From a virus (Duplodnaviria > Caudoviricetes), in IMG/VR virus record IMGVR_UViG_3300043220_000071, positions 1 to 45,355 of that record: DNA of 45,355 nt; one strand, written 5' to 3'. Made by a program: the position numbers and the translations under genes. This document shows, in pieces, positions 7,393-43,207 of this stretch. The first letter of the stretch is position 1; each line of letters begins with the position of its first letter. Below the pieces are notes generated by a model. The model was not told the DNA's origin. It made no database searches and saw nothing but the letters and a program-made list of their open reading frames with translations.

Positions 7393-10300
7393 TCATCTAG
7401 CAATACCAGCGAACGCTTCCTCACCTAACGCTGCCTCTTCCTCACGACTCAGCTGCCGCTCCAGCAAGTCAGGGTAGAACTTCGCCAGAATGACTTGGTT
7501 GCTCTGTAACATCTCGTCTCGGCGGGGATCAAGGAAAACGTCGCGCACCCTCCCCCTGCGAAAGAGCATCGCAAACCGCAATATCTTGCTGGATATGCCT
7601 AACTCCTTCGCGGCGAGAATCATGGCCACAACACGGCTGAGTTCCCGCCTCGTGCGCCGTAGGAAGTCGCGTTGGAAATCCCCTACGGATACGTTCACGA
7701 ACTCGTCCAGCTCCTCACCCTCTTTTAACGTGAGGCCCTTGTATTTCGGCGTGTCAAAGAGCTTGTCCACTACGCCCTGTGCCTTGCGGAACTCCGTCAC
7801 GGTCGGCGTGTCAAACTTGCGGATGAACTCCATCACCCGTCGTCTATCACCCGATGACAAACCTTTCAGGGCGGTGTCACGGGCCTTGAAGAATCCGTCC
7901 CAATCCACTTCACCATCTGGCTGCGCGAAGTCGTCCACGTTGACATCAAAGTAGGCGTCGATGGCGGCGTTGACTGAACCTGACGGAGCCTCTTTGTCAT
8001 CAAACTCTATCTGGAAATCAGCCTTGATCTGTTCGCGTCGGTTGAAGAAGTCCCTCTGTCGGTCACGGTATTTCTCCCGCCAAGCATCACCCGACCATTG
8101 ACCAGAGTTCAGGTTGGCATCGTCGTCCAGTTGCTCGGTCTGCTGCACCTCACGGGTAGCCTCAATCGCCTCAAACCCCTGGCCCTGTGGGGTTGTCTGG
8201 CCCCTGAGTTTTGCCGTCTCCCGCCGCAACTCTAGCTCTTGCCCAATCCGTACCTCAACCTCGTCGTCTATCTCGTTGGCGCGAGGTGAGTCGGTTGCCT
8301 TGATGTCTTCGTAACTGCCCTCAATCCCCTTCTCCCGCATCACCTCACCACGGATGCGGTCAAGGAGTTGGGGCGTCGTCTCCGCCCGCAGGTTGATACC
8401 GGTGGCCTGAACCCCTAAGCCCGTGGTGCCCAACCGAGCCTCACCTGGCTGGATCAGCCCCTCCGTCTCCTCAATGTTGCTGCGGAGGAGTTCCAGCCCT
8501 GCTTGGCCGGGGCCGATGGGGGCAAACAAGTCCTGGGCGAGCTGTGCCGTGCGGGAGAAGATACCTCCCGGTCCTACAGTATCAATGGGTGCCCCAAAGA
8601 AGTCCTTGCCCGTGGCCTGGCTGACCCCCGCACGCACAGGTACGCTATAGCGGGCAGACAGGAAGCTCTTGGGGTCAAGGGTGCGGAACGCGGTGTCCAT
8701 CTGCCCCATGAGGTCTATCGTTACCTGAACTCCCGACCGCCCCGTCAACGGTATGTTGGGCGCGGCAAAGTCGGTGTTGTATCCGAAGGGTAGCGGTCCC
8801 CACTTGTCCTTCGATATGGGAGTGTACCTGCTTATCGGCAGGGGCTCGCCAGTCGAGGCGAAGTGAATAGTGTTTGCAAGGGCTATGACGCCAAGGTACG
8901 TCCCCAGCAGGCGGGTTCGGAAGTACGCCGCGTTCTCTCCCCTGATCGCCCCCGTGAACGCCCTCAACAGACCTTCCTGCTCATTCAGGCTGAAGAGAAA
9001 GCGGGTGAGGAACCAGCGGGCTTGCTGGTTCTGGACAACGCTCATGCCGGCGGGAATAGTCGAGTAGCTGGCGTTTGCTTGTTTGGCGATCATCCCCGCC
9101 AGTTGACGGTCAGGCAGGTCGGGGTGCTGCCGCATAATCATAGGCCCGATGTTGTTCTTTATATCGCTCAGAGTAGCAGCGGGGTAAACCCCCTTGAACA
9201 GCCCGTTACGCCACGCCCGCTCCAGGTCGGCCAGGAGACGGAAGGGGGCCTTGCCCATCTGCACTATTCTCGGCTCTGCCCGCACCTCAGCAATAACCTT
9301 GTCCAGTTCAGGGAATATCGTCTCATCTCGAAGGCTCAGACCCTCCTCGCTTATCATCTTGTTGGAAATCCTCCGACCCTTCCACAGCGGGGTGTCGTCC
9401 ACCGCCAGCCTGCTTAATCTGCTTCGGAAGCCCGGACTGAAGGTCGAACGGACAATATCAACGGCGCTCTTAGGCCACTTCGCCAGGTGAGTCACCGCAG
9501 CGACGGGCTGGCCGCGCCTCACCGCGTCCACAAAGCCCGTCCATGCCCCGACATGGGAGCGTCCAAGGAAGTCAACGTGCTGGAAGACCGAACCGATGAG
9601 CTTAGCCCGCTTAGGCAGGAAAACGGCAGCGTCCACGGCCTTCTGAAAATCTACGATCTTGCCGAATATCTCACCCTTCCCCAGTTTGGGGGTCACGCCG
9701 TAGACGTTCTCCAGCCGGTTCGCCAGCGAGTCAGGTACAGCCCAACGGCGGGTAAAGGCCACCCCACCGCCAGGGGCAGCGTAGGGTTTGCCCTCAAACG
9801 CAGAACCGACCCTGGGGACGCGCCAGCCCTCGGGAACAGTCCCCCCTGTGTGGGGGAGGGCCAATTCCTTAGCCTTAATTTTGTCGATGAGCTTCATCTG
9901 CTCCCTGTACTTGATGCCCATGAGCCGCGAAAACCGCGCCTGCTCTGCGGGGTTCTCAAACAGCGGCCTAAACCCTGCCTCTATCATCTCGTCATAGGTG
10001 GCGTTGACTCTGGGGAGCCTGAACGCCGGGCTGCGGCCTAACGCGCCCCTGGCCTCTCCAGTGAACATCCCCTCCGGCGGTTGCCAGCCACGGAAGAAGT
10101 AGTCCTCCACAAGCGCCTGATCGGGGTCGAAGTCAACCCGTGCCGCCTGCTCCCAATCGGTTTGTGCGCGGAGTTCGTCATAGATGGGGCGCAACCGTTC
10201 GGGGACGGCCATCTCACCCGATGTTACCTTAGTGGGGTTATGCAAGAGACGGTTGAGTTCATCGAACGCACCCTCCTCCTTGGCCACAACCGACTGGCGG

Positions 10301-11451
10301 AAGCGCCGCCCGAGGCCAGCGTCCACCAGTAAGTTGTTAACGTCCTCTGCCGCATTTGCCGCGATTCTCGTCTCAGTGTTGATGACCCCCTGATGACGGC
10401 GGACCAGCGTTTCCCCTGGCTTCTCGCCCTTCAGGGCCGCTTCAAGGATGCCGTCAAACTCTGGGTCGTCGGGAGTCAGCCTACCCGTAGGCGGTTCTTT
10501 CGGCGGCGGGCCTGGGTCGCCCTTCGCTATGTGGGGGTCAAGTCCCCCAGCCTCCGCCGCCAGGGTGCGCCGCAATTGGGGTGACGTGATGGCCTTTCTA
10601 GCCGCGCCTACCGCTGGGCGTACCGCCATGCCGCCCGCAAACCCACCTCCCAGGCCACCCACTAGTTCACCAACAAAAGGCGGCACTCCAACTTCCTCTG
10701 CGACCTTTCCACCCACAAAAGCACCGCCACTGCCCGTCACGGCGGTCGCGGGGCCAATCAACGGCCCACCAACACCAAGCGTACCGATTGTCGCGCCGAG
10801 TTCAGCGGGCGTCCTCAACCCTGGAATCTTGCCTGCGATGCCGGGGAAAGGAGGCTCACCAGCAGGAGCGCCAATATCAAACGCTGGGAACTCAGGCGAC
10901 TCAGGGGAGATACCCCTTGTTAGGGCTTCCTCCTGTGCTGGCGTGGGGTCTATTCCGATTCGGGGCTGGCCCGTTGAGTACGATATGTTGTAACCCTTCT
11001 TGAGGGCCGCGTCTAGTTCCTCTGGCGTCAGGGGCTCACCCGTTCGGGCCTTGCGCTGCAAGGATACCCCCATAGGGTCTTGACGGACTTCTGGTGGCGT
11101 CGGAACTCGTGTTTCTAGCCTGTCCACGAACCGCCCGAACGGTGACGGGCTGGGCTCGAACGTCGGACGCGCAGACGGCTGCTGCCGCTGCTCCACCTCA
11201 CGAAAGCGGGCCATTTTCTCGTCCAACTCCAGTCCCCGTGCCCGCTCAGCCTCCATCTCAGTGTTGACGGACTGCGCCTGATCCAGTTGCGTCCCTCTTG
11301 TCCGTTCCTGCTCCATCTCGGCCTGTATCTCCTGGGTGCGGCGCTGCTCGAACTGGGCAAGTTCCTGCTTGCGCTGAACCTCTCGCTGGGTCTGGTCCTG
11401 AATGCGTCTCAGGCGCATATCAGGGGTGACGTAGGAGGAGTATCTAACCAT
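7393..11451 (-). CDS. Large internal virion (ejection/polyvalent-type) protein
   Basis: 1352 aa; N-terminal coiled coil, Gly-rich hydrophobic segment, QATGKDFFGAPI motif resembling large polyvalent protein domains. Confidence 0.7.
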   Translation of the reverse strand: MVRYSSYVTPDMRLRRIQDQTQREVQRKQELAQFEQRRTQEIQAEMEQERTRGTQLDQAQSVNTEMEAERARGLELDEKMARFREVEQRQQPSARPTFEPSPSPFGRFVDRLETRVPTPPEVRQDPMGVSLQRKARTGEPLTPEELDAALKKGYNISYSTGQPRIGIDPTPAQEEALTRGISPESPEFPAFDIGAPAGEPPFPGIAGKIPGLRTPAELGATIGTLGVGGPLIGPATAVTGSGGAFVGGKVAEEVGVPPFVGELVGGLGGGFAGGMAVRPAVGAARKAITSPQLRRTLAAEAGGLDPHIAKGDPGPPPKEPPTGRLTPDDPEFDGILEAALKGEKPGETLVRRHQGVINTETRIAANAAEDVNNLLVDAGLGRRFRQSVVAKEEGAFDELNRLLHNPTKVTSGEMAVPERLRPIYDELRAQTDWEQAARVDFDPDQALVEDYFFRGWQPPEGMFTGEARGALGRSPAFRLPRVNATYDEMIEAGFRPLFENPAEQARFSRLMGIKYREQMKLIDKIKAKELALPHTGGTVPEGWRVPRVGSAFEGKPYAAPGGGVAFTRRWAVPDSLANRLENVYGVTPKLGKGEIFGKIVDFQKAVDAAVFLPKRAKLIGSVFQHVDFLGRSHVGAWTGFVDAVRRGQPVAAVTHLAKWPKSAVDIVRSTFSPGFRSRLSRLAVDDTPLWKGRRISNKMISEEGLSLRDETIFPELDKVIAEVRAEPRIVQMGKAPFRLLADLERAWRNGLFKGVYPAATLSDIKNNIGPMIMRQHPDLPDRQLAGMIAKQANASYSTIPAGMSVVQNQQARWFLTRFLFSLNEQEGLLRAFTGAIRGENAAYFRTRLLGTYLGVIALANTIHFASTGEPLPISRYTPISKDKWGPLPFGYNTDFAAPNIPLTGRSGVQVTIDLMGQMDTAFRTLDPKSFLSARYSVPVRAGVSQATGKDFFGAPIDTVGPGGIFSRTAQLAQDLFAPIGPGQAGLELLRSNIEETEGLIQPGEARLGTTGLGVQATGINLRAETTPQLLDRIRGEVMREKGIEGSYEDIKATDSPRANEIDDEVEVRIGQELELRRETAKLRGQTTPQGQGFEAIEATREVQQTEQLDDDANLNSGQWSGDAWREKYRDRQRDFFNRREQIKADFQIEFDDKEAPSGSVNAAIDAYFDVNVDDFAQPDGEVDWDGFFKARDTALKGLSSGDRRRVMEFIRKFDTPTVTEFRKAQGVVDKLFDTPKYKGLTLKEGEELDEFVNVSVGDFQRDFLRRTRRELSRVVAMILAAKELGISSKILRFAMLFRRGRVRDVFLDPRRDEMLQSNQVILAKFYPDLLERQLSREEEAALGEEAFAGIAR

Positions 11452-11809
11452 TCCGCTCTACCCACTTCTTAAACTCGATCATCCCAGGCCCGAACCCCAT
11501 CTCGGCGATATATTGACTCAATCGGTCGTCCAAGGCTGCTGCGTTAAACGCAATGCCGAGGTAGTCCCGCTTCTCGTCTTCAGGCGATTGCTTCACCGAC
11601 CCTACGGGGCGGTTGGGGACGACGTTCAGATTTCCCTTAATCTCCTCGACCCTTTTCTGTGCGGCATTGAGGATGCGGTCGTAGCGCCCCGTAGGGTCTT
11701 CGAGATTGGGAGAGCCAAAGTTATTCACTGATTCCCGCCAGTTGTGATTCCTGCTGACCTCGTGTAGCCCTAGCGGTGTTCGCCGCCGTGCGAGCCAACT
11801 GTCCCCCAC
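11444..11809 (-). CDS. Hypothetical protein (true start may be downstream, overlapping the portal stop)
   Basis: ORF between the portal and the large internal protein, overlapping both. Confidence 0.6.
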   Translation of the reverse strand: MGDSWLARRRTPLGLHEVSRNHNWRESVNNFGSPNLEDPTGRYDRILNAAQKRVEEIKGNLNVVPNRPVGSVKQSPEDEKRDYLGIAFNAAALDDRLSQYIAEMGFGPGMIEFKKWVERNG

Positions 11810-13622
11810 CGCCCAACTCGGGCGGGACGTCGCCCTGGAAGCGAGCTAAGAGCGCCTGCTGAGCTTGCTGGGGTAGGTCGGCGAAGCCTTGAGCGATGGC
11901 CGCTATCTCCTCCGGCGACAGCTCTCCGGCGGCAACCTGGGCCTGCCGCTTCAGGGTATCGATGTACTGGTCAACCAGAGCGTTCACAACTAACTGCTCG
12001 TTCACGCTATCGACCATCTCCATTGGGTTTTCGATGTCCAGTTCTCCTTGAAGGACGGCGACGTCCGAGAGTAGAGGTCGTTGTCCCGGCCCGCGAGCTT
12101 CCGTGAGTAATCGGGCGTTGGTCACCGCCGCGCCACGGTTCACGGGTAGAGCTAGTTTAATTACCCCCTGAAGCAGGAGGTCGTATTTCTCCGCGTCCTC
12201 TCTGGTGAGCGAAATCTCCCTGGAGCCGTGTTTGCTGTCGGCCTCTCTCACGGTTACTTTGTCGTCTTCCGGCAATGCCCTAAGGTGCAATTTACAGATG
12301 TTGGCGAAGCCGTCCTCTAAATTGGAGTGGGGCACGGAGAGTTCAGTGATCTGGGCCTGGCGGGCGGTATCCAAGTGAACGGCGGACTGCCCCGCTGGCC
12401 CTTGGCCAATGGTTTCAGGTCTGTGCGCCCCTGACCTATCGAGGTACTGCGCCCCGAAGGCGACCAGTTGGAATAGATTGGGATTCACCGTCGCGGTAGG
12501 GAACCTCCCCAACTCCTCTTGACCTTCCTCACCACCGTAGAGGACGACGTTCTCGTTGGCTCGGATGTCTATGGTTTTCTCCTCGATGCCTAACGCTGTC
12601 CGTAGTCTTGGGAACAACCTCGCCCAGAGCGGGGATTCTACCTCTTTGCGGGTGACGGTCCTTAAGTCAGTAATGGACTCATCGAGCATCTGCACCATTT
12701 CCCTGCCGTGGTAAGACGCCCCTCTGCGGGTGTGGCCTCTGTCGTTCTGTCTCATGGGATCGAAGCGGATGAACGTGTACGGCAGCATCCCCAATCCGTG
12801 CTCCCACGGTTCTTTCAAGAACATCGCGTCCCGCTTGAAGACCTTACCCTTCCCCTGTCTCAGAATGGACGCAACGTACTTGTGGTTCGCGTACTCGATG
12901 ACTTCCAGCTCGGTGTCTTTTTTGAGGTCGTCGGGCAGGTCTATGGCCCCGAAGCGGGTTTCGATGATGTCTTTCGTTATCTTCCTAACCTCGAACACTT
13001 CCGCGATGCCGCGTTCGTCCCACTCCCTATACGTCGAAACCGGGTCAACGTACCGCCACACAATAGGCCAGTTATTATCCTTAGCCCTTTGAAGTTTCGC
13101 TTTTTGCTTCTTGATCTCCTCTTCGGGAGCGCCCTCGGAAACCAGGGAATTTAACTTGTCAACCTCTTCCGCCACTTCGTCATCGGCCCAAAATTGAGGA
13201 GCGGGGAGGACTTTGGAGACGAACTCCCCGATTAAATTCTGGTCTAAGAGTCCGGTATCCCAGACGGGGAAATCCCCCTGGGAAAGCCACACGGCGATAT
13301 TCAGCCAGGGCTCAATTTTCCCTGATACATGTCTCTCCGCTTCTTGTCCTCCGACAGCGTTGACCCTCGCGGAAGGTCGGGGTCTTAGAACGTGGACGTT
13401 GCGGTCAATCTGGGTGCCGACGATCCCCATCCCCACGCCCCTGACCGTGTTCCTGTCTCCGCGCTGATCCTTTTTGTCCCCTGGATCGTAGGCGTTGATA
13501 ACGTGGTCTTGGTGGTATTGGGAGACCATCTGCTGATCGAGTTTCTGCTGAGAGCCGGACGAGGCTTCTTTCTCCCTGGCACGTTCATCGACCTTTTTAG
13601 GGTCGGGGAGGTCTTTTCTCAC
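11721..13622 (-). CDS. Portal protein (putative)
   Basis: 633 aa directly downstream of TerL with GTGA overlap; WEHGLGMLPY motif; Gln/Ala-rich C-terminus as in podoviral portals. Confidence 0.8.
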   Translation of the reverse strand: MRKDLPDPKKVDERAREKEASSGSQQKLDQQMVSQYHQDHVINAYDPGDKKDQRGDRNTVRGVGMGIVGTQIDRNVHVLRPRPSARVNAVGGQEAERHVSGKIEPWLNIAVWLSQGDFPVWDTGLLDQNLIGEFVSKVLPAPQFWADDEVAEEVDKLNSLVSEGAPEEEIKKQKAKLQRAKDNNWPIVWRYVDPVSTYREWDERGIAEVFEVRKITKDIIETRFGAIDLPDDLKKDTELEVIEYANHKYVASILRQGKGKVFKRDAMFLKEPWEHGLGMLPYTFIRFDPMRQNDRGHTRRGASYHGREMVQMLDESITDLRTVTRKEVESPLWARLFPRLRTALGIEEKTIDIRANENVVLYGGEEGQEELGRFPTATVNPNLFQLVAFGAQYLDRSGAHRPETIGQGPAGQSAVHLDTARQAQITELSVPHSNLEDGFANICKLHLRALPEDDKVTVREADSKHGSREISLTREDAEKYDLLLQGVIKLALPVNRGAAVTNARLLTEARGPGQRPLLSDVAVLQGELDIENPMEMVDSVNEQLVVNALVDQYIDTLKRQAQVAAGELSPEEIAAIAQGFADLPQQAQQALLARFQGDVPPELGGGGQLARTAANTARATRGQQESQLAGISE

Positions 13623-15802
13623 GCCAGGACTCCGTGTTCCACTAGCTTCGGCGGCTTAAACCCAATCGGCATGGCTTCTATCTCTTGGAGGGCATCTGCC
13701 GCCGCATCCCACGCATGATCTGGGGTGTTAACGTCAAACTTGTCCGTCTCCAATTCGCGGCCTCTTCTTTTAGCCCAGGACAGCCCTGAGGCTTCGCGGA
13801 TGAGGAACTGGGACTCGTTACAGATGGTCAACATTCCTTGACTCAACGGTGTTATCCACGACTTCACTCTCAATTCAATCCGGTTGGAGCGGGCCTTGAT
13901 TGCGGGGATGCCTTTTTCCTGCATCCACCGAATTCTGTCTTTCCCAGAGGGGTCGCAGACGAACAGAGTGATCCCGTCGTCCATCGCGTCCCGGCACGCC
14001 TTAACGAACGTTTCGTCGTTACAGTCTCGTTTGTACAGCCACTCCCGTAAATATCTATGACCCGTCTTTGTGACGGCGCACTCCACAATCGCCGTGGCAC
14101 TCTGAACGCCGAAGTCCACCCCCGCTATTTTTCTGATGAACAGTTCGTCCGGCCAGGGGGCGATATGCTTGTCAGGGTCGAAGTTGGGCAGGACCAACCC
14201 CTCCATTTGGACGAACTCCCCCAGAACGTACTGGCGGTACATCGGAGTCCCTTCGATGTAGGTCTGGGTCATCCTCTCGATATACCCATCGGGGAGATTT
14301 GCTTTGTTCTCAAAAGTAGAGCCAGGGAACAGAACATGCCCGGTTTCTTTCGCCGTGGGATTATCGACCCACTCCCGCCACAGCCAGTTCCTCCCTGAGG
14401 GGGTGGTGGCGACGCCCAGCCAGTGCCTAAACCCTTTTTGCCTCAGACGGCCCACCAGATTCAGGTAAGCCTGCTCCTGGGAGCCGTGCTCGGTGGAGCC
14501 GGCCTCGTTCATCAGCGCCCACGCCACCTCGAACCCCACTAGCCTCTCAGGCGTCTCAGCGGCCTTGAGCATCCATAGACAGCCGTTTGCGAACTCAATC
14601 CGGTGGTTGGGACCACCTTTGCCCTGCTCAGTCCAGAAAGACCCCTCGTACTCGCCGAAGAAGCCCCTGAGTGTCGGCAAACACGACTCGGCGAACATCG
14701 CCGCCACGGGCTCCGTCCAGACTCCCCTGGAGCCGGGGTTTTCTATCGTGTACATCCAGCACTTGATGACCCCCCCCGCTGTTTTGCCTGAGTTGTGGTG
14801 CCAAAGGCCATTGGCTGAGTAGTGGTGAAGATGGGGAACCGTTAGATCGTAGTAATCGCCATAGCGGTCGAATGTCACCCGCACTATAGAGTCCCAGAAT
14901 GTGCTATAATGAACACATGGGAAAGGGAATGGGTCCTGGATCGCAGAAGACACAATTTCAGCGGCGGCTCGATTATGCTCAGGTGTTAAAGCTGTATCGG
15001 GAACTTGGAACGCAGCGTCGGGTAGCCGAGAGGCTGGGCTCGAATCAAGGGACGATCTCAGGAATACTCCGTTCTCAAGGTGTACGCGTGGGTGTCGGCC
15101 CCGTGACAAAATACGATCTACCGATGGACGAGATCGCGTCCCGTTATCTAGCGGGCGAGACCTGCCGAGAGATTGCGAAAGACTACGGCGTTGACGATGA
15201 GCGCATTCGCCGCCGCTTGAAATCGAAAGGTGTAACGAGGCGGAATGGCGGAGGGCCAAAGGGGAGCAAGAACTTTTTCTGGAAGGGGGGTTTTCAGCCC
15301 ACGATGCACTACTATCGGCGACAATCATACGAGGTAGCGGCAATCTGTTTAGGATACCCGCTGCCCCAAGGAATGATAATCCATCACTTGGACGAGAACC
15401 CGAGGAATAACAATCCCGACAACCTCTGCCTATTTGAGAATCAAGGAGACCATGCCCGCTTCCATCTGCGGCTACACAATCTCCAGCGGACAGGTCAGAA
15501 AGTTGACGCCATCCAGACGGCGTTAGAAAACGGTGGCCGAGAGTTACCACCACCTCCCGCCCCGATTTCGTTACCACTCGGTACAAGTCGGCGCGACCCT
15601 TCAAGAAAGAGGCGGTCGCAGGGGATGAGCCCAACAGCGTCCTGACATCCCCGCGTTCTCTGTCTGCAACTGGCATTCCTGAAACAAGAGTCTCCGCAGC
15701 TACGCATCCCTGACCCCCCATGAACGCCGGGAACGCGGCCTCGGAGCGGACAAACCCGTCCTGTGCGCCCTTGTTCAGGGCGACCTCTACTTCAGTCGTC
15801 AT
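13619..15802 (-). CDS. terL: Terminase large subunit precursor containing an intein (predicted spliced product 422 aa)
   Basis: Walker A GGQG|SGKT split by the intein; Walker B-like ALMNEAG; ATTPSGRNW coupling motif; GVDFG and DHAWDA RNase H-like nuclease motifs. Confidence 0.95.
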   Translation of the reverse strand: MTTEVEVALNKGAQDGFVRSEAAFPAFMGGQGCVAAETLVSGMPVADRERGDVRTLLGSSPATASFLKGRADLYRVVTKSGREVVVTLGHRFLTPSGWRQLSDLSAGDCVAADGSGHGLLDSQIGRGCRDCYSSGSRPSDGLSFLGAAGILNRLPLPRMIVADSSASWAENPPSRKSSCSPLALRHSASLHLSISSGGECAHRQRRSLSQSLGRSRPLDNGTRSRPSVDRILSRGRHPRVHLENGVFLRSSLDSSPASRLPDAAFQVPDTALTPEHNRAAAEIVSSAIQDPFPFPCVHYSTFWDSIVRVTFDRYGDYYDLTVPHLHHYSANGLWHHNSGKTAGGVIKCWMYTIENPGSRGVWTEPVAAMFAESCLPTLRGFFGEYEGSFWTEQGKGGPNHRIEFANGCLWMLKAAETPERLVGFEVAWALMNEAGSTEHGSQEQAYLNLVGRLRQKGFRHWLGVATTPSGRNWLWREWVDNPTAKETGHVLFPGSTFENKANLPDGYIERMTQTYIEGTPMYRQYVLGEFVQMEGLVLPNFDPDKHIAPWPDELFIRKIAGVDFGVQSATAIVECAVTKTGHRYLREWLYKRDCNDETFVKACRDAMDDGITLFVCDPSGKDRIRWMQEKGIPAIKARSNRIELRVKSWITPLSQGMLTICNESQFLIREASGLSWAKRRGRELETDKFDVNTPDHAWDAAADALQEIEAMPIGFKPPKLVEHGVLA
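14900..14910 (+). promoter_or_regulatory. Extended -10 promoter (TGTGCTATAAT) inside the intein, for the antisense HNH
   Basis: Consensus TGn-TATAAT ending 6 nt before ATG 14917 (leaderless spacing). Confidence 0.75.
14917..15645 (+). CDS. HTH-HTH-HNH homing endonuclease encoded antisense within the intein
   Basis: Two helix-turn-helix units (TQRRVAERLGSNQGTISGIL; TCREIAKDYGVDDERIRRRL), GSKNFFWKGG motif, HNH core IIHHLDENPRNNNPDNLCLFENQGDHARFH. Confidence 0.9.
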   Translation: MGKGMGPGSQKTQFQRRLDYAQVLKLYRELGTQRRVAERLGSNQGTISGILRSQGVRVGVGPVTKYDLPMDEIASRYLAGETCREIAKDYGVDDERIRRRLKSKGVTRRNGGGPKGSKNFFWKGGFQPTMHYYRRQSYEVAAICLGYPLPQGMIIHHLDENPRNNNPDNLCLFENQGDHARFHLRLHNLQRTGQKVDAIQTALENGGRELPPPPAPISLPLGTSRRDPSRKRRSQGMSPTAS

Positions 15803-24200: not shown

Positions 24201-24380
24201 CTATTCGGTTGCTACTAGCTTAGGCTCCTTGACCTCAATCGTCAACCCGCCTACACCGTTGAACCTGACGCTGTAGATGCGCCGACACTTTGGACACCTC
24301 ACCCCCTCAAAGGGAACCGACAGTATCCCAGGCAGCCGCCAGCCATCAGCCATACACCACCAGCGCCTAGGGTCTGACAT
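24201..24380 (-). CDS. Small zinc-ribbon protein, Mu Com-like
   Basis: WWCMADG...VRCPKCRR; 59 aa. Confidence 0.55.
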   Translation of the reverse strand: MSDPRRWWCMADGWRLPGILSVPFEGVRCPKCRRIYSVRFNGVGGLTIEVKEPKLVATE

Positions 24381-24789
24381 GCCGTCTTTCGTTCTTGCAG
24401 ATTCGACACTTTCGATGCCCGTTGTGCTCAACGAGATTATCGCCAGCAAGAGGGTGGCCCCTAGGGCAGTGCGTCACCCTAGCGTTGTCTGCGGTAGGGG
24501 AAAAGCCGCGCAGCACATTCACGCTGTTAGAAACTAGCTCCATGTGCCCCGGATTAACACAGCCAGGGTTAAGGCACAGATGATCCACAACCAAGCCGTC
24601 AGGAATAGACCCAACAAGCAGTTGATAGGCAAAGCGATGCGCGTAGATATTCTTCTGAGCCACCGTGACGCGCCCGTAACCTTGCTTGCTACGGTATCCA
24701 CGCCACATCCAGCAGTTACCCAACTTATCTACCTTGGCCCAGAAGCGAGCTTGCGGGGTTGTTAGGTAAACCGTATGCTGATTGGGCAT
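24367..24789 (-). CDS. HNH homing endonuclease
   Basis: RFWAKVDK..CWMW.G....GYG, AHRFAY, VDHLCLNPGCVNPGH, THCPRGH, CRIC motifs. Confidence 0.92.
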   Translation of the reverse strand: MPNQHTVYLTTPQARFWAKVDKLGNCWMWRGYRSKQGYGRVTVAQKNIYAHRFAYQLLVGSIPDGLVVDHLCLNPGCVNPGHMELVSNSVNVLRGFSPTADNARVTHCPRGHPLAGDNLVEHNGHRKCRICKNERRHVRP

Positions 24790-24884
24790 CGAAAGTGCCC
24801 CTTTCGGTGTCGGGGAGCCGGGCGTGTAAGCGTCGCGGCTCCTATCTAACTCAGATACAACCATTATACCACTTTTGGCGGGGC

Positions 24885-29731: not shown

Positions 29732-30079
29732 TTATGGCCCTTCCATTCGGCGCGGGGTATTGCAACCTTGCAATTCGGGCATGGATACCCCCAGCGGCGC
29801 CGGCCCACGGTCCTCAGCCCCAGCCTCCACCTCGCGTATCTCACCAGCGGCGAGTTCGCCATCGGGACACCTACACTTCCCGTTCAGGTGATGTAGTACC
29901 GACGTGTGATTCACCAAGCCCAGGATGTCCGCTATCTCTGTAAGGGTGTAGTTCTCTGCACGCAGAGCCACCATATGCTCGTGCCTAAGCTGGACGTTTT
30001 CCTGCGCCCTGAAGGGTATGTATCGCAGTCGGCGAAACATCGTCGCGCAATCCGCGAGCGCTGCATCTAGCGCCTTCAT
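29732..30079 (-). CDS. DNA-binding protein with DnaA C-terminal-like HTH
   Basis: YTLTEIADILGLVNHTSVLHHL resembles the DnaA domain IV HTH. Confidence 0.7.
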   Translation of the reverse strand: MKALDAALADCATMFRRLRYIPFRAQENVQLRHEHMVALRAENYTLTEIADILGLVNHTSVLHHLNGKCRCPDGELAAGEIREVEAGAEDRGPAPLGVSMPELQGCNTPRRMEGP

Positions 30080-31137
30080 CCTTGCTCCTCCAGCCCTTCA
30101 AGGAACTGCCCGATCTCAGGCCACTCAGCGATGCCGAACTCCCTGGCCTTTTGCCACAATTCTTCCAGCGTCCACCGCTTCACCTTCGGCTTCGTCCCCT
30201 TGACTTGGCGACGGAATTCTGCCACCGACCACTGTTCCTCTTCGCACTTGTCCAGCCACATCTCCATGTCTTCGCGGTTCAGCCCCAACATCACGACATG
30301 GTGGGAGAAACGCAGCCCGGTGCGCCTCATGTTCTTCGGGACCGCCTCACAGACGTACATGATGTTGGCCATAGATTCGTGGACGTAGCCGAAGTCACAG
30401 ATGTACTGCTCCGCCTCTTCTCCTAGCTCGGCCCGCCAAGCGTTAGCAGTGTCGCCGGCGATCCATTGGCGGTTCCATTCGGTGTCATGGATTTGTTGGG
30501 CGATTGCTACGCGCTGTTCGTGGGTTAGAGGAGAAGAAGCGCTAGAATCACCAGCACTATCAGGAGCCACATGAAGCTCACCACCATCGCCGCCGCCAAC
30601 ATCTCTCGCTGGCCCCGTCTCAGCCCCAGCCGGTAAGCCCTCTGGGTTGCTGGCCGAACCTTGTCGTTCTTCATCGCTTTCCTCCTTGCTCAGTGATGGT
30701 GCCGAGGAACCACGGTGCGCAGCCGTGTTCGGCATAGGCCTCACTGCAAGTGCCGCCTCAGCACCATCACTCAACCGGCCAGCTTCCTCGCCCTCCTCTA
30801 CCCGCTGGCCAACGTTCGGGCTGCGCGTTGTGGCATCTGGCATCACCTCCTTTTGAACCAAGCACTTGTAGCGCTTGCTGACCTCAACAGGGACTTTAAT
30901 CCAGACGCCCTTAGCCTTACGCCACTCAAAGAATCCGTCCTTCACGCGGGTTTCTAGTACATGGCGGTGCTTGGCATCGTGGTGGCCCCTACAGAGCGGA
31001 CTCTTGTTCTCAGGTACGTCCCGTTCTTTTGACCCGCCCATCCCCTTCGCCTGAACATGGTCTATGTCGATGTCCTGGTCCGTGCCGCAGACCAGGCACA
31101 CGAGGTCTTGGCCCGTGGGTTGCTTAGCGACGGTCAC
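30076..31137 (-). CDS. HNH-like domain fused via a low-complexity linker to an LmbU-like DNA-binding domain
   Basis: N-terminal CLVCG..DIDHVQAKGMGG..N..PLCRGHH..KH; C-terminal QWIAGD..RRTGLRFSHH..WLDKC...WSVAEFR. Confidence 0.7.
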   Translation of the reverse strand: MTVAKQPTGQDLVCLVCGTDQDIDIDHVQAKGMGGSKERDVPENKSPLCRGHHDAKHRHVLETRVKDGFFEWRKAKGVWIKVPVEVSKRYKCLVQKEVMPDATTRSPNVGQRVEEGEEAGRLSDGAEAALAVRPMPNTAAHRGSSAPSLSKEESDEERQGSASNPEGLPAGAETGPARDVGGGDGGELHVAPDSAGDSSASSPLTHEQRVAIAQQIHDTEWNRQWIAGDTANAWRAELGEEAEQYICDFGYVHESMANIMYVCEAVPKNMRRTGLRFSHHVVMLGLNREDMEMWLDKCEEEQWSVAEFRRQVKGTKPKVKRWTLEELWQKAREFGIAEWPEIGQFLEGLEEQG

Positions 31138-31418
31138 GGCCCCTCCCCCGTTAAGACCCACTCAGCCCCGCGCTCATAGGCGGCTTGGGCTTCGGCGGGG
31201 TCGTCGGTGTTGACAACGCCTCTAAGATTCCCCGTCAACCAATTGCTGTGAGGATGGTCTTCGATACGTTCCAAGATTCGGCCAGATGTTGAAAGAAAGT
31301 CAGCTGGTTGGTTGCAGGAAAAGGTACATAGAGACTTCTGGTGCATGCTAGCTCGCCGCCCCTCAAACTCAGCGAAACCCACTAGGCACGGCGGCAGCCC
31401 CTCTCTAGGGTCACTCAC
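31134..31418 (-). CDS. Hypothetical protein
   Basis: 94 aa, GTGA-coupled. Confidence 0.6.
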   Translation of the reverse strand: MSDPREGLPPCLVGFAEFEGRRASMHQKSLCTFSCNQPADFLSTSGRILERIEDHPHSNWLTGNLRGVVNTDDPAEAQAAYERGAEWVLTGEGP

Positions 31419-35216: not shown

Positions 35217-35404
35217 CCCTGGAAGCCTCTCAGCGCTTGCAGCAAGCCTCTCAGCGCCTTGCCAGCCTGACCTTCGTAGTAGGTGCCCTTTTCGAGAGTG
35301 CGTCCCGCTTCGCCCAGCCGTGAGTTATCCTCGCCGTCAAAGATATACTTCACGTCTGAGGGTCGGTGAACGGGGTGGACGGTGTGGATTTTGACTATCT
35401 TCAT
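35213..35404 (-). CDS. Hypothetical protein
   Basis: 63 aa, coupled on both sides. Confidence 0.6.
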   Translation of the reverse strand: MKIVKIHTVHPVHRPSDVKYIFDGEDNSRLGEAGRTLEKGTYYEGQAGKALRGLLQALRGFQG

Positions 35405-37932
35405 GAGCCCGCCTTCTCTATCACTGGGGCCGCTATCACGTATTCAGGCGGCTCTTGGTTGCGCGGTGTCAAGGCGCTAATCTCGTCGGCGCGGAGCATT
35501 CGCGGTTTCCCCATGATGCCGTTGAACGTGTCCCTGCCGGGGAGAGTGTACTTCTTCAGGTCGCCCACATACCCCTCAAGCTCGGAGCGTATCTTCTTCG
35601 CCGTCCTGCCCGTCTGATCCGCCACGTCGAACAGGAACATCCACTCACGGGAGGTTCGGGGCAGGGCTACTACACGCAACACTACATCTCGCAGGTGGGG
35701 ACCGTTGGTGTTCGTGAGATTAGAGTTCCCCACCCATCGCACCTGTACCAATAGCGTCCTGGCCGTATCGTTGCTGTCCTGTGTCCAGAACTGGCGGAAG
35801 AAGCCGTCCGAACTGATGGTAGAGCCAGGATCCTCTAAGGAGCCCCCGTCGCGGTAGACACTGAACCGGAAGGCACCAACCACGGAGCCGAAGTCCTCCG
35901 CCCAGCCCTCAATGGCCCAGAGCTGCTTGGGGACGTTAGGCATCCCCCCGTCGATGCGCCCACTGGTGACGCTACCAACAGCCATTAGGCCGATGTCGCC
36001 CCTGCGACTAAGAGGGGCACCATCCTTATCCAGCCAGATGTACCTCAGGTCGTTCCCGTCGGCATACCACAGACAGGGCCTAGTCTCTGAAGCAGAGAAC
36101 TTCGAGGTCTCCGTTATGTGAACTCCGTGGAAGTCGTTGAAGTCAGCCGAGGGAAGGGCGATCACTTGCGAGATTAAGGGCATGGGGCCAGGCGGGTCAG
36201 TCTCCTTCCGCTCCCTTATCATCGTCAAGAAGGCGGTTGTACCCGCCGACGAAACGTATAGCCTGTAGGTATATGCGCCGAAAGTCGCTCCTCCCATCCA
36301 ACGTCCATGCTTGAAGTAGTCGGTGGAGCCTAGGCTGGGATCATTGGCTCGGTTCTCGGGGTTGGAGTCGGGGCCTTCCGGTTCACCCGTGAGTGTCCAC
36401 CAGAGCCCTGAAGAGGCGGGGATCATGAACCCTCCATGCCAGTACACCATCCCCTGCCCGTTGCGCTCGGCCTGCTGAATATCGGGAAAGACGTTCTGAG
36501 CCTCCCCTATCAAGTCCCACTCGTAAAAACCGTCTTCCTTGGCGATATAGCCTAGCCCGCCCGCCTCACCCAGCTCAGTGATGTTGGAACTGACATCGCC
36601 CGCAAAGAAATCACCGCCCCAGTTGGCCTCCGTGTTCGGGTCGGAGCCGCGAGGCAGGATAGAGATTTGGTTCTCATCCGTAGAGCGGATAAGCTGATTA
36701 CCTACGACTTTGAGATGCCGTGCGTCTGCGTCGGCGCTGGCCGTCCAAGTATCATCACTGGTGCCGCCCGCTATCGTGGTGAGTTTTTGTATCTTGCCGT
36801 TATCCCCCAACCCCAGCCGCCAAAGGGTGTTCGACCCATCGTTCCATTCGGCGGGGTGGCCCATCGGCTGGGTGGTGTCCACGACAAACGTTTTTGTATT
36901 GAGAAGAGTCCCGAAGTTGGCGGCGGCGAGGCTGATCTTGTAGACGTTGACCTCGCCATCCTCAACGCTGATGGCGTAGAGCACCGGCAGCTTGGCGGGC
37001 TTCAGGGCGATAGCCCCAAGAGCCCAGTTCGACGAACTGCCAAGCGTCCAGCTCATCGTGACGGTGCCAGCACCGGGTTCACTACTGCCAGCGCCACGGA
37101 TGGTAGTCCCCTCAAGAACGTTCCAGCGCTGAGTCTGGCTTGCACCCACCGTCGCCGTGACGTTTCCCACGACCAGGCAGCCCACCACCACCTCCCCCGA
37201 AGCGCTTGACACATCGACAGTAGCAGGGCTACTGGAGCCAGAGGCCGCGACGAAGGAGCCTACAGGTTTTGCCTGGTCAACGTTCGTCCAGCTATCAGCC
37301 CCACCAACGATGTCACGCGTCGCGCCGCTGTAGGTGGCGACGATGTTGGCCGCGCCAGTCGCCGGGGCCACCAGAAACCATATCTGCATCTGGCTGCCGT
37401 TTGATGGGTGGTTACCAGCATACGTTAGGGCCGTGCCGCCGTAAGTAACGGTGTCAGGCCCAGGCGTGGGCACGTTGGACAGCCCGACCCTAAGAAGGCG
37501 GTCATCACCCGACCCAACCGTGTGCTCCCAGGTGAGGCTGGTGACGGTAGAGTCACTGGCGTCGGAGGCGGCATCGAAGGCGATAGTGGCGTTGGGGGCC
37601 AGCGCCTCAAACCCGTACATCGGCGGGTTGGCCGCGTCCGTGAGCGTGACCTTTGTGGGCACAATAGGGGGTCGGATGATGTTCGGCTCCTGAACGATCA
37701 TCCCAGTGCTGACGAACGCCCCCGCCTGCCGCTCATCGTAGGTGGAGTACGCCAACCCGCCGTGAAAGGAAAGGGGAATAGCTAAAGGCTGATTGGGCTC
37801 TGCCTCCGGTTGTTCAGAGACGGTTTCGTAAGAGACGTTGTTGGGGATACGGGACAGGGGGTAAGACTTCTTCCCCGTATCGTCGACTGCTGAGACGCCG
37901 AGCTCGTCGCCTATATCGGACGCGGCTCTCAC
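35401..37932 (-). CDS. Putative tail nozzle/tubular protein (beta-propeller) with an inserted domain
   Basis: 843 aa following the adaptor-like gene; propeller-like repeats (GYIAKEDGFYEW, GMVYWHGGFMIP). Confidence 0.6.
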   Translation of the reverse strand: MRAASDIGDELGVSAVDDTGKKSYPLSRIPNNVSYETVSEQPEAEPNQPLAIPLSFHGGLAYSTYDERQAGAFVSTGMIVQEPNIIRPPIVPTKVTLTDAANPPMYGFEALAPNATIAFDAASDASDSTVTSLTWEHTVGSGDDRLLRVGLSNVPTPGPDTVTYGGTALTYAGNHPSNGSQMQIWFLVAPATGAANIVATYSGATRDIVGGADSWTNVDQAKPVGSFVAASGSSSPATVDVSSASGEVVVGCLVVGNVTATVGASQTQRWNVLEGTTIRGAGSSEPGAGTVTMSWTLGSSSNWALGAIALKPAKLPVLYAISVEDGEVNVYKISLAAANFGTLLNTKTFVVDTTQPMGHPAEWNDGSNTLWRLGLGDNGKIQKLTTIAGGTSDDTWTASADADARHLKVVGNQLIRSTDENQISILPRGSDPNTEANWGGDFFAGDVSSNITELGEAGGLGYIAKEDGFYEWDLIGEAQNVFPDIQQAERNGQGMVYWHGGFMIPASSGLWWTLTGEPEGPDSNPENRANDPSLGSTDYFKHGRWMGGATFGAYTYRLYVSSAGTTAFLTMIRERKETDPPGPMPLISQVIALPSADFNDFHGVHITETSKFSASETRPCLWYADGNDLRYIWLDKDGAPLSRRGDIGLMAVGSVTSGRIDGGMPNVPKQLWAIEGWAEDFGSVVGAFRFSVYRDGGSLEDPGSTISSDGFFRQFWTQDSNDTARTLLVQVRWVGNSNLTNTNGPHLRDVVLRVVALPRTSREWMFLFDVADQTGRTAKKIRSELEGYVGDLKKYTLPGRDTFNGIMGKPRMLRADEISALTPRNQEPPEYVIAAPVIEKAGS

Positions 37933-39158
37933 ATCCGCACCCCTATCCTGGTCGGCAGTTCAACCGTCACCCTCTGGAAGTGGATAGCTCTGAGAAGGGC
38001 CATCGTCTCAGCGGCCTTGTCCGGCTCTCGTACCAGCTTCTCCGCCCATCTGACGATGAAGTCCTGCTCCGCTACAGAGGTAGAAGTGTCGGCGGAGAGT
38101 TCGTCTAACGGCCTCAGAGCGTAAATGAAGGGGCGGGCGCTCCCAGCGTCCACCCATATATGCAATGGTAGGTTCCCCCGTCTGTCGACGCTCTCAAAAC
38201 CGTAGGACAGGGGTTGGGAACGAGTCTCGTTGGAGCGGTAGTCATTGTCGGAGCTGGGGCCTCCCGTGCCTTGCGCGAAACTCCGCACGTCCAGCAGTTG
38301 TTCCGGTCGGGTGACCCACGACGGGAGAGAATAAACTCGCCTGCCCGTACTCCACACCTGGAAGTTCTCCCAGAACGTGATGTCGGTGTCGGTGTCGGAG
38401 ATGAAGCGAAAGTCTATCTGCTCACAGTCCGAAGGGGTGGAGAATTGATAAACCAACTCTATCCATGAGGGTTCGTCCGTAGTGGCGTCTTCGATAGTAG
38501 CGCTGGAGTCGGTTACATCAACGACGCGGAAGGTTGCTGAGTCTCCTGAAGTGACGTAGCAGTCCACGGCGGCGTAGAGGCTTAGGCTTTCGGGGACGCC
38601 GATGTTGCCGGTGTTCCCATATCCCCCCGCCGACGTCGCCGTGTTCTTGAGACTCTGCGCCCCGTGCTTGACAATGGTGGCTTCCGTCGCCAGGGTCGCG
38701 TTCGTGGAAGAATAGTCCGTCGCTATCGTGGACGGTTCCATGTCGTTGGCGTCGTTGCCCATGATGTGCATAGAGAGAGGAAAGAAGGTCGGCAGAAAGA
38801 TGTTGCGCTGTACGCGATTGATGGCGTTCTGCAACACCGCCGGTGGGTGGTCGCTGATAATGAACAGGTCACCACTGGCGAGGCTGGCGATGCTGGGGTC
38901 TACCGTGAGTGAGCCTGTTACAGTCCAGCCTGCCTCGGTGACACGGCTCGTACCCCTAGAGCCAGCGTCGGCTGCCTGGACCACGTAGACATACTTCCGG
39001 TCGAAGGCGTTTACGTCACCGGAGGAGTAGTTTAGAGCCCCGCCCGTCTCGGTGATCGTCGTGCCCGTTGAGGAACTGTTAGTGCCGGTAACTGGGTCGT
39101 GTTTATCCGCGTAGAGAAGGCGAGAAAGCTCTCTTTGTATAGCGATGCGGGTCGGCAT
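37929..39158 (-). CDS. Putative head-tail adaptor with an inserted carbohydrate-binding-like module
   Basis: 409 aa; LQNAINRVQRN adaptor-like helix; central ANDME...KHGAQSLK...WENFQV CBM-like segment. Confidence 0.55.
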   Translation of the reverse strand: MPTRIAIQRELSRLLYADKHDPVTGTNSSSTGTTITETGGALNYSSGDVNAFDRKYVYVVQAADAGSRGTSRVTEAGWTVTGSLTVDPSIASLASGDLFIISDHPPAVLQNAINRVQRNIFLPTFFPLSMHIMGNDANDMEPSTIATDYSSTNATLATEATIVKHGAQSLKNTATSAGGYGNTGNIGVPESLSLYAAVDCYVTSGDSATFRVVDVTDSSATIEDATTDEPSWIELVYQFSTPSDCEQIDFRFISDTDTDITFWENFQVWSTGRRVYSLPSWVTRPEQLLDVRSFAQGTGGPSSDNDYRSNETRSQPLSYGFESVDRRGNLPLHIWVDAGSARPFIYALRPLDELSADTSTSVAEQDFIVRWAEKLVREPDKAAETMALLRAIHFQRVTVELPTRIGVRM

Positions 39159-39167
39159 TGGCTACTC

Positions 39168-39296
39168 CTATTTCTTGGCGAAGTGGCGGAGCTTCGTCGT
39201 GCTCAGAGACTTAAAAGAGCGGGGTTTCTTCCCCGCCCTTCGTCGGCCTAACTCCGCACCCGCCGCCCTGCGCTGCTTGGCGCTTTTTGCTGGCAT
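39168..39296 (-). CDS. 42-aa basic protein, DUF3008-like (MPAKSAKQRRAAGAEL...)
   Basis: MPAKS.KQ..AAGA motif; fills the intergenic gap; not in the ORF track. Confidence 0.7.
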   Translation of the reverse strand: MPAKSAKQRRAAGAELGRRRAGKKPRSFKSLSTTKLRHFAKK

Positions 39297-40544
39297 CTAC
39301 CCCACTCCCGTTACCGTCAGGCTGTAGCGGCGTGTGGCGGGTGCTCCGTCCGCCGCCGCAATTTCCACGTCGTTGCCATCATTAACGAAGAGGTCGAGGT
39401 CGTCATCGTCAAAGAAGGCGGGCATTATTCTCCCCCCTGAGTTACCGATAGTACGGCCTAGAGAGGTCATGCGCAGGTCATCGTTCTCAATGCCGTAGGT
39501 TTGTTCAGTACCCCAGCTAGTCATACTGTTATCAGACTTCTTAAAATAGCAGACAACCGTGGAGAGCAGAGTCTCGTCTCCTGCGTCCGAACCACAATAA
39601 GCCACGTAAATATCACCATTTTGCTGGTTAACCAAAAGAGAGGGAAAAGACGAATCATCGGTATCGGTGTCAATATTTGCTTTCTGAGTAATGGTTGGCG
39701 TAGCTTGAGTAATATCTACAGACCTAAAGTCGCCAGTCGCGGAGTCAACGGCGTTCCAGTACACAACTAAGATGTGTTCGTCCGAATGTCGGCTAACCGC
39801 GTCGAAGACACCCTTGTAGCTTCGAGCTTCGGCTCCTGTAACGCTGCTCGTCGCGTCAATCGCAGTTACACCCCAAGTTCCAGCACTCTCATCGTACTTC
39901 CAGAACTCTAGGTCTTGGTTGACAGCATCGAATACTACCGCGCAAATATCGTCGGTGTCGGCAGCCGCGCCAGGGAACAGCTTTATCACTTCCTCGTCCG
40001 CGGAATAGGGTGAGGTCTCCGACGTACCGGCTGTGGCAAATCCATCTGTGGAGGACAGCATACTGTGGTCGGTGTTCTCGGCGTCATCCTCGTAATCCCC
40101 CCTCACAGCTACATAGACCCTCCCTGATTTTGCGACGGTTATTGCTACATCGCTGTCGCCACTAGTGGGACTCACAGTGAGCGAGTCTATTGTACGGTCT
40201 GTGCCCCAAGTGTCGTCCGAGGTGTCGAACTGTATGTAATGAACTTCGTTGGTGGGGGCGGTTATTAAAAATGCTATGTGGAGGAGAGTCCCGCTATTGC
40301 CTTCGGTTTCCTGGTCGAACCATACCGCCATCGACCTATTACCTCCGTCAGCGGGGTTGTTAGCGGCATCTTGAACTGTCCAGGACGCCCCACTATTCGA
40401 GGTCTTGTAAACCTCGATTGGGCTACCAGTTTGGTTGACAAGAATAATATAACCAACTGAAGGACTTGTCCAGTATGGCCCGTGAACGGCGTTACGTTCA
40501 TTGGTGACAGCAGAACAGTTGTCAAATACAGTTACGTCAGCCAT
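39297..40544 (-). CDS. BNR/Asp-box beta-propeller virion protein
   Basis: YKTSNSGASW and KKSDNSMTSW Asp-box-like motifs; acidic, 415 aa. Confidence 0.7.
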   Translation of the reverse strand: MADVTVFDNCSAVTNERNAVHGPYWTSPSVGYIILVNQTGSPIEVYKTSNSGASWTVQDAANNPADGGNRSMAVWFDQETEGNSGTLLHIAFLITAPTNEVHYIQFDTSDDTWGTDRTIDSLTVSPTSGDSDVAITVAKSGRVYVAVRGDYEDDAENTDHSMLSSTDGFATAGTSETSPYSADEEVIKLFPGAAADTDDICAVVFDAVNQDLEFWKYDESAGTWGVTAIDATSSVTGAEARSYKGVFDAVSRHSDEHILVVYWNAVDSATGDFRSVDITQATPTITQKANIDTDTDDSSFPSLLVNQQNGDIYVAYCGSDAGDETLLSTVVCYFKKSDNSMTSWGTEQTYGIENDDLRMTSLGRTIGNSGGRIMPAFFDDDDLDLFVNDGNDVEIAAADGAPATRRYSLTVTGVG

Positions 40545-40559
40545 GAGTCACTAGCATCC

Positions 40560-41960
40560 TTAGTCCTGGTAGAGAATGACTATCCCAGCGTCGCCCGCGC
40601 CGGGAGCACCGTTGTCGGTTCCAGAGCCAGTCGTGATCGCAACGGTCAACGCGGTGCTGTAGGCGAGGCCGCACACTGGAATGGGAAGCACGACGCCCGC
40701 GCCGTCCGAGTCGGCGTTGCCAGGAATCAGGTAGTTGTTTGTCGGGGCTGTAGTCCCCACTGTGACGGTGTTGGTGTTGAAAAGCTGCAACCACAAGGGG
40801 GCAGCAGTCGCGTTCCAAGCATAGATACCGTAGATGGTCACCGCGCTGGAGGCAGGGTCTTCCTCCGACTCGTCAAGGTCCACGGAGGTGAACATCTTGC
40901 ATCCACCTGTACTAGACGAGTGAGGACGAGTGTAGAGCGCACCGGCGGCATCAGCCTGGAAGGGAACGTAGTCTCCATCTGTGCCACCCAGGGCGGCCAG
41001 GGCGTCGTTCCTGACCGCTAGGGACATGACCCCGACATCACCGGAGGCGTGTTGGGCATCCTCGATTTTAGCCAAGTCGCCAGCGGCTCCCGTGGCGGCA
41101 CCAATCGTCACCTCGCCCACTACCGCTGCGCCTGCCGACAGGACAGTATACAGAGCACCGCTGGCGTTCACCTGTAGGGGTGCTATCTCGTTGTCTGTCC
41201 CCGCTAGGGCAGCAAGAGCATCGTTACGAACCACACCGATAATCTGGCCACTGGTGGTCGTTTCAGTGTAGGTAGCGGTTCCCAGCACCGCCACGGGGTT
41301 GTCAATCAACTGCAAGGCGGTGAGCGCGTCGCCGGATATGGTGGTGTCCAGCGTAGCCGCTGACACGTCCATCGCCGCTCCCTCTTGAATGTAAAGCGCT
41401 CCAGAGGCGTTCACTTGGAGGGGAGCTATTTCGTTATCAGTCCCTGCCAGCGCCGCGAGGGTGTCGTTGCGCACCACACCGATGACGTTGCCACTGGTCG
41501 TGGTCTCGGTGTAGGTCGCCGTTCCCAACACGACCACGGGGTCATCAATCAGTTGTAGGGCTGTGAGGGCGTCGCCTGTAACAAGGGTGCTCGCCCAGAG
41601 CCGCCCGTTATCGAGCTGAAGCGGCTCGTAGTCGCCGTCCGTGCCGCTCAGGTCGGCGGGGGTCGCCTTCCGCACAGCGAGCATCTGAACGCCCGCGTCG
41701 CCTGTCGAATGGGCGGCATCCTCAGCCAAGACGATGGAGGAGGCGTCGATGGTCACGTCGTTGTTCCCACCTAGGTCTACCGTGACGGTCGCGTTGGAGG
41801 CCCGTATGTCTACGGGGAGCCCCGCTGATGTGGTGACCAGCGTGGCCGTATTTAAGGCCCCGAACGCCAGCTTGTTGATTTGATACCATACGCCGGTGAT
41901 GTCGTCTGCGGCGATAACCGCCCCGCCACTTCCCGCATCAAGCTCGATATTGTCGGCCAC
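40560..41960 (-). CDS. Repeat-containing structural protein (fibre-like)
   Basis: 466 aa; internal 81-aa tandem duplication; recurring EDA.H..GD.GV..LAVR and PLQV.A.GALY units. Confidence 0.75.
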   Translation of the reverse strand: MADNIELDAGSGGAVIAADDITGVWYQINKLAFGALNTATLVTTSAGLPVDIRASNATVTVDLGGNNDVTIDASSIVLAEDAAHSTGDAGVQMLAVRKATPADLSGTDGDYEPLQLDNGRLWASTLVTGDALTALQLIDDPVVVLGTATYTETTTSGNVIGVVRNDTLAALAGTDNEIAPLQVNASGALYIQEGAAMDVSAATLDTTISGDALTALQLIDNPVAVLGTATYTETTTSGQIIGVVRNDALAALAGTDNEIAPLQVNASGALYTVLSAGAAVVGEVTIGAATGAAGDLAKIEDAQHASGDVGVMSLAVRNDALAALGGTDGDYVPFQADAAGALYTRPHSSSTGGCKMFTSVDLDESEEDPASSAVTIYGIYAWNATAAPLWLQLFNTNTVTVGTTAPTNNYLIPGNADSDGAGVVLPIPVCGLAYSTALTVAITTGSGTDNGAPGAGDAGIVILYQD

Positions 41961-41965
41961 TTATG

Positions 41966-42878: not shown

Positions 42879-42879
42879 T

Positions 42880-43173: not shown

Positions 43174-43207
43174 CTTTAATCTCCCTTCTCCTTCGTGGTG
43201 ACTACGT

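Follow-up and report, generated by a model that had tools for sequence, protein, structure and literature searches.

A terminase intein from an uncultured phage with a conserved antisense HNH gene as its likely homing endonuclease

The virus record IMGVR_UViG_3300043220_000071 (Caudoviricetes), a stretch of 45,355 bases with direct terminal repeats at its ends and referred to here in its entirety as the window, carries a terminase gene, terL, that is interrupted by a class-1 intein, and the strand opposite that intein encodes an intact and conserved HNH endonuclease preceded by two helix-turn-helix (HTH) modules. We consider it likely, from sequence comparison, that this antisense HNH gene acts as the homing endonuclease of the intein, and the whole is most likely a real, conserved and functional homing element. 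Its parts in the window are as follows.

13619..15802, minus strand: terL precursor gene, 727 amino acids (aa) in a single open frame; Pfam Terminase_3, phrog_2
15707..15802, minus strand: N-extein, 32 aa, with GGQG (first half of Walker A) at its end
14792..15706, minus strand: class-1 intein, 305 aa, C1 ... HHN
15467..15706, minus strand: N-terminal splicing region, intein residues 1-80, with C1 at 15704-15706 and block B T55 and H58
14897..15466, minus strand: intein linker, residues 81-270, open, unconserved as protein, the antisense reading of the HNH gene
14792..14896, minus strand: C-terminal splicing region, W271 to N305, with D287, H304 and N305
13619..14791, minus strand: C-extein, 390 aa, with Ser+1 (SGKT) at its start
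14902..14910, plus strand: extended -10 promoter candidate, TG at 14902-14903 and TATAAT at 14905-14910, with an ATG 7 nucleotides (nt) further on
14917..15645, plus strand: predicted HTH-HTH-HNH endonuclease gene, 242 aa, antisense to the intein
14971..15243, plus strand: two HTH modules, residues ~19-55 and ~68-109, predicted to bind DNA
15373..15477, plus strand: HNH catalytic region, residues 153-187, with H156, H157, N169, H179 and H183 invariant
15478..15645, plus strand: C-terminal tail of the HNH protein, overlapping the N-terminal splicing domain of the intein and conserved in the intein frame

A first-pass annotation, made from the letters of the window without database searches, had described a class-1 intein that splits the TerL Walker A motif and whose linker lacks any recognisable in-frame nuclease motif, and both descriptions hold. 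The intein has C1, TLGH (TxxH) at residues 55-58, the block F D287, H304-N305 and Ser+1, of which C1, T55, H58 and N305 are invariant across 15 aligned inteins. It scores 44 bits with Pfam Intein_splicing (PF14890, cut-off 35.8), its profile matches DnaB inteins in the PDB at E 1e-17, and the TIGR01445 and TIGR01443 scores fall just below their cut-offs. At the exact insertion site, relatives that lack the intein have an uninterrupted GGQG-SGKT, and the insertion is in frame, so that the spliced TerL is predicted to have 32+390 = 422 aa. No endonuclease family was matched when the 305-aa intein frame was compared with protein-family profiles, which sets aside a canonical in-frame HNH intein, and the single 727-aa frame likewise sets aside a split intein or fractured gene. 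A group I intron was rejected, an Rfam scan of 13500-16200 having given no intron match and one chance-level match (E 0.4). There is no sign of an assembly artefact: a 1071-nt contig from run X1, which may itself be the source sample of the record, covers 14693-15763 with zero differences at a depth of 79.8, against 71-79 in the flanks. Runs X2 and X3 have no coverage across the intein, which we take as showing nothing beyond the joints seen in contigs.

The plus-strand open reading frame (ORF) of 242 aa scores 38.2 bits with Pfam HNH_3 (PF13392, cut-off 24.8, E 1e-9) and has two HTH regions, as the first-pass annotation had read it, and at the sequence level its nearest Atlas clusters are HNH_3. 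The five catalytic-region residues listed above are invariant in 60 aligned proteins (the query and 59 relatives), and all five are kept in the window. The gene is longer than the ~190-aa linker to which it had been assigned: its last ~55 codons overlie intein residues ~21-76 and cross block B in the N-terminal splicing domain, and the tail motif in the family consensus is what intein block B gives when read in reverse.

Nor is the element the one-off cassette insertion that had been supposed, as it belongs to a widespread family. When 50%-identity representatives were searched with the HNH protein, 42 proteins matched at E <= 1e-30 and 219 at E <= 1e-10; the family alignment consists of the query and 59 of the top 72 matches, those that aligned over most of the length. 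Of the DNA searches with family alignments, three returned the best ~80 loci each, and the locus counts are accordingly lower bounds. Among the 275 HNH loci fetched (window included), intein parts lie on the opposite strand in 34, on the same strand in 59 and are absent from 182. After removal of 6 duplicates at least 28 distinct antisense loci remain (window included), with both intein halves in view in 24, and all 28 share a single frame register in which codon position 1 lies opposite position 1. All sequences that score above about 90 bits with the family profile lie antisense within an intein, and the antisense HNH was always found together with an intein, in both cases among the loci fetched. 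A protein-only test, made without DNA, points the same way for 27 inteins from the TerL search: the antisense HNH motif is encodable at 9/9 positions in 15 and at 8/9 in 6 (one elsewhere) of the 21 long inteins without an in-frame nuclease, as compared with 5-6/9 in 5 mini-inteins and 6/9 in one in-frame HNH intein, a full match being reached in at most 1/40 shuffles.

The element is hosted mostly by TerL, and also by DnaB (L091) and an SNF2-like helicase (L218); insertion sites are of the Walker A type in 16/17 examined. One antisense-HNH intein (L100:783-1649, minus strand) is inserted in TerL at another position (GLMA-SPNLP), which lies downstream of Walker A and suggests a switch of target. 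The N-terminal HTH repeats number from about 1 to 4 among family members (HNH genes of L008, L094, L214 and L087), and the intein lengths range from 252 to 421 aa as a result. Related mini-inteins of 124-143 aa (P0038, P0041, P0042, P0050, P0055) and P0061, with its in-frame HNH, should be useful for ordering the gain, loss or inversion of the nuclease. A search of viral contigs with the single HNH protein found nothing, and cultured phages gave distant HNH matches (14 records, <60% identity) and short intein matches (8 records), among which no carrier was identified.

The intein frame across the HNH gene is stop-free in 28/28 loci, where synonymous recoding leads one to expect 2.9-7.4 stops per locus. 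For the window the expectation is 5.8 stops in the intein frame, with 0/300 recodings stop-free, and in 169 distinct free-standing HNH loci that register contains 4.35 stops per 100 codons. A chance antisense ORF is rejected by these figures, the invariant residues and the single register. Which frame is under selection depends on the region. For 20 of the 28 loci (7 distant ones and 1 truncated one were excluded), nucleotides at HNH codon positions 1/2/3 have identities of 0.45/0.53/0.28 in the second HTH and 0.64/0.70/0.45 in the HNH core, which become 0.69/0.56/0.70 in the tail on block B; amino-acid identity in the core is 0.53 in the HNH frame versus 0.32 in the intein frame, and in the tail 0.42 versus 0.60. 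Codon-position conservation switches in the tail, and we infer that the nuclease frame holds the linker and the splicing frame holds the overlap. Building the alignment in the HNH frame may have biased it that way, but the flip of conservation to the intein frame in the tail argues that this choice does not force the result. Homologs thus keep the HNH residues and not the intein-frame linker, rather than the reverse.

The first-pass annotation had placed a TGn-TATAAT promoter ahead of the HNH gene. The motif itself is there, a perfect TG-c-TATAAT at a conserved offset, and the box recurs in the family; a usable -35 box is absent from the window (2/6 matches, and the promoter is not listed by a two-hexamer scan), and what stands is an extended -10 candidate. 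Among loci with a visible C-terminal splicing block, a strong -10 box on the HNH strand lies 95-130 nt from the +1 codon in 17/26, versus 6/33 same-strand inteins and 15/312 windows inside HNH genes. In 12/26 loci it sits at an offset of exactly 116, and the intein residue opposite varies (Y, N, C, S). A conserved promoter-like box thus recurs upstream of the antisense HNH genes, and promoter activity is predicted. An ATG or GTG start follows the -10 hexamer by 7 nt in 9/26 loci, as in the window, and a leaderless mRNA is predicted from this spacing. Other members differ: L008, L011, L015 and L039 have a Shine-Dalgarno-like motif before a start 25-40 nt away, and L087 has a perfect -35 box. 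An in-frame ATG at 14899, upstream of the -10, is also present and is a possible start in the window; 14917 is preferred because L090 and L096 carry an in-frame TAG inside the -10 hexamer, which blocks the upstream start in these two loci. Structure is weak over the opening 74 nt of the HNH ORF (z +1.26, not significant), and no terminator-like site was found on the plus strand right after the gene.

The intein is missing from 32/34 related TerL proteins, including the nearest relative of the window TerL (92% identical over 387 columns). The two carriers, the window and a protein designated P0003, are no sister pair: P0003 sits in another clade, 0% of 200 bootstrap trees join the two, and 2 changes are forced on the tree. 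This distribution bears on the idea that the antisense gene aids packaging, as an HNH cofactor of terminase, or that its RNA tunes terL expression. HK97 gp74 is an HNH cofactor of terminase, the gene does lie within terL, and any RNA made from it would be complementary to the terL mRNA; a role of this kind is nonetheless very improbable given that 32/34 related terL genes do without the element, that DnaB and the SNF2-like helicase have it, and that among the loci fetched the HNH always accompanies an intein.

Empty alleles occur alongside the element. Contigs from run X1 join across the intein position: one, of depth 4.7, does so precisely at the junction, and others come from relatives that have diverged further, at depths of up to 83.6. 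Together with the patchy distribution, these empty alleles in the same run fit homing. Splicing domains average 0.52 identity over 17 loci, HNH 0.49 and exteins 0.24, and splicing-domain and extein distances are uncorrelated (rho 0.16, p 0.13). In the splicing domain and the HNH-core region, P0003, the closest intein-bearing TerL, is near-identical to the window. The rest of its linker, available as protein only, cannot be aligned and the usual promoter-side Tyr is missing; its DNA-binding region may have been swapped or have decayed.

The antisense gene might alternatively be silent here, or a recently dead relic, leaving what is now a mini-intein with a long linker. The missing -35 box in the window would suit such a relic, as would the P0003 intein's loss of a motif with Tyr by which the -10 box is recognised in most relatives, and Gosselin, Arsenault and Gogarten (bioRxiv 10.1101/2025.01.02.630785) expect antisense ORFs to decay once homing stops. 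We nevertheless find this improbable: the window ORF is free of stops over 242 codons and keeps the five invariant residues, the TG-TATAAT is perfect and at the conserved offset, and the same run contains empty targets.

Several observations weigh against an active homing nuclease expressed from its own promoter. The interval in which -10 boxes were counted was chosen after inspecting the loci, and 8/26 have no box within it. The profile match of the HNH protein to I-HmuI (PDB 1u3e) is weak, at E 0.017. Over the 17 loci, splicing-domain and HNH distances are only moderately congruent (rho 0.36, p 0.02), and the relation between HNH and extein distances is borderline (rho 0.21, p 0.05). Among the loci compared, no near-identical intein was found in a divergent extein, and no recent homing event is evident. 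One gain followed by many losses could also account for the TerL carriers.

Some of the same figures are relevant to whether the HNH enzyme, although active, is a lodger, for which the intein would be a safe site while it cuts elsewhere than the empty terL junction, in another gene or in competing phage DNA. Some free-standing phage endonucleases do cut at other sites or attack competing phage DNA. Exteins are diverse (24% mean identity) and HNH is conserved (49%), so a single HNH family would need many junction targets; the moderate agreement between splicing-domain and HNH distances is also in keeping with a lodger, as is an HNH-core tree (241 cores, 95 columns; weak), in which antisense cores do not form one group and 6 changes are counted. 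We still regard it as unlikely. All strong matches to the family profile among the loci fetched are antisense in inteins, the predominance of Walker A-type sites offers a shared target in the Gly and Lys codons, and even cutting nearby would carry the intein along by co-conversion.

If the antisense HNH is the homing endonuclease, the element could work as follows. terL is open as one frame through the entire insert. The intein would splice out of the precursor, rejoining Walker A, discarding the ~190-aa linker and restoring the 422-aa TerL; splicing is expected because the class-1 motifs are present and TerL is essential. The extended -10, which is of host type and lies in the codons just before the C-terminal splicing block, is a sequence pattern from which a convergent leaderless mRNA might be transcribed, beginning at or near the ATG at 14917. 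In a co-infecting relative, the two HTH modules would then bind the Walker A sequence free of the intein, and the HNH would nick or cut nearby, as its likeness to HNH_3/I-HmuI-type enzymes suggests, and repair from the intein-bearing genome would copy the element. A separate promoter may also allow the nuclease to be made during DNA replication, and not only late with the terminase.

The layout has precedents, and the expectation of the first-pass annotation that it was undescribed for inteins is overturned: antisense LAGLIDADG and VSR-like endonucleases, some in TerL, are reported in bioRxiv 10.1101/2025.01.02.630785. In the available text of that preprint, Gosselin et al. count 63 non-canonical inteins among about 800 in actinobacteriophages, many of them in terminase, and distinguish in-frame HNH, anti-sense LAGLIDADG, anti-sense VSR-like and frame-3 endonuclease VII-like types; they propose that a free-standing endonuclease invades the intein, an origin also put forward in the first-pass annotation, and name Gorbalenya 1998 as the source of the anti-sense LAGLIDADG form. 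The inteins they describe share with the window a whole in-frame intein, an unstructured in-frame linker, an endonuclease ORF on the opposite strand, a terminase host and a patchy distribution over the extein tree. In contrast, the window nuclease is HTH-HTH-HNH rather than LAGLIDADG or VSR-like, HNH being given only in frame in that text, and the position-fixed -10 box and the leaderless or Shine-Dalgarno starts that recur here have no counterpart in their account as available, which contains no promoter.

Phillips, DeSimone and Gogarten (bioRxiv 10.64898/2026.09.14.751524) describe, in the available text, a cyanobacterial DnaX intein with a LAGLIDADG ORF in the +2 frame, a Shine-Dalgarno motif and purifying selection. 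As in the window, splicing and endonuclease functions occupy separate overlapping frames, the endonuclease frame is under selection, and empty alleles coexist with mini and full ones. It differs in being a LAGLIDADG in a +2 ORF, and neither 'antisense' nor 'HNH' occurs in that text, although Gosselin et al. (bioRxiv 10.1101/2025.01.02.630785) call the DnaX intein anti-sense. ShiLan in phage methylases (Arsenault et al. 2025, PMC11855218), as far as the available text goes, is similarly a hidden HNH gene in another frame with the host frame kept open, but it lies on the same strand (third frame) and has no splicing domain. A separate endonuclease gene between the intein halves is likewise a feature of fractured genes with split inteins (Dassa et al. 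2009, PMC2677866, available text); these have a host gene in two pieces and nucleases of GIY-YIG or Vsr-like type, whereas the window frame is continuous. The HH-x-D-x-N ... N ... H motif is that of HNH_3 phage homing endonucleases such as I-HmuI. The window protein has its HTH modules N-terminal and its nuclease C-terminal, and is hosted by an intein and not, as I-HmuI is, by a group I intron. In I-HmuI the domain order is the reverse, with the nuclease N-terminal and the DNA-binding part C-terminal. The literature searched, as far as its available text extends, yielded no antisense HNH within an intein, nor the block B overlap or the promoter, and preprint supplements could list cases; the layout is already published for other nucleases, and the HNH version is apparently new.

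Earlier publication of the general layout for other nucleases limits the surprise. An intein endonuclease is ordinarily a domain in the intein frame, and a long linker without features is taken for a decayed nuclease. In dozens of loci here such a linker is the back side of a conserved HNH gene, and annotation or counts of homing-cycle stages that treat it as dead would therefore be wrong. The fixed -10 box offers a direct handle on how an antisense intein nuclease is expressed, a question that is open in the published cases, and the family provides naturally occurring examples of long DNA that codes on both strands, with selection passing from one strand to the other at a definite position. 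With somewhat less assurance than for the window itself, we lean towards a broader view: that uncultured phages harbour a large unpublished family of P-loop inteins whose homing nuclease is an antisense HNH gene with its own promoter; that one stretch of DNA is read three ways, as splicing domain and, on the opposite strand, as nuclease tail and promoter; that expression is thereby freed from late terminase timing; that this may be the usual state of the clade; and that many inteins annotated with a degenerate endonuclease are in fact mobile.

The same-strand inteins fetched in these searches present a related arrangement. In 18/28 distinct ones with both halves in view the HNH motif is out of frame, the HNH frame being +1 in 10, +2 in 8 and in frame in 10, and the intein frame is stop-free in all. 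The out-of-frame loci are L032, L041, L042, L049, L060, L061, L065, L072, L131, L133, L135, L137, L156, L157, L176, L251, L253 and L273. They parallel ShiLan and the frame-3 endonuclease VII-like inteins, and no report of a same-strand out-of-frame HNH intein was found in the available text of the literature compared.

Elsewhere in the window, a 633-aa gene directly after terL occupies the usual portal position. Several long ORFs (843, 409, 415, 466, 362, 1352 and 633 aa), at 35401..44859 and 7393..13622 on the minus strand, have no Pfam match. A second HNH_3 gene of 165 aa, apparently free-standing, lies at 24367..24864 on the minus strand (E 2e-12), and there is a weak HNHc_6 match at 30076..31161 on the same strand.

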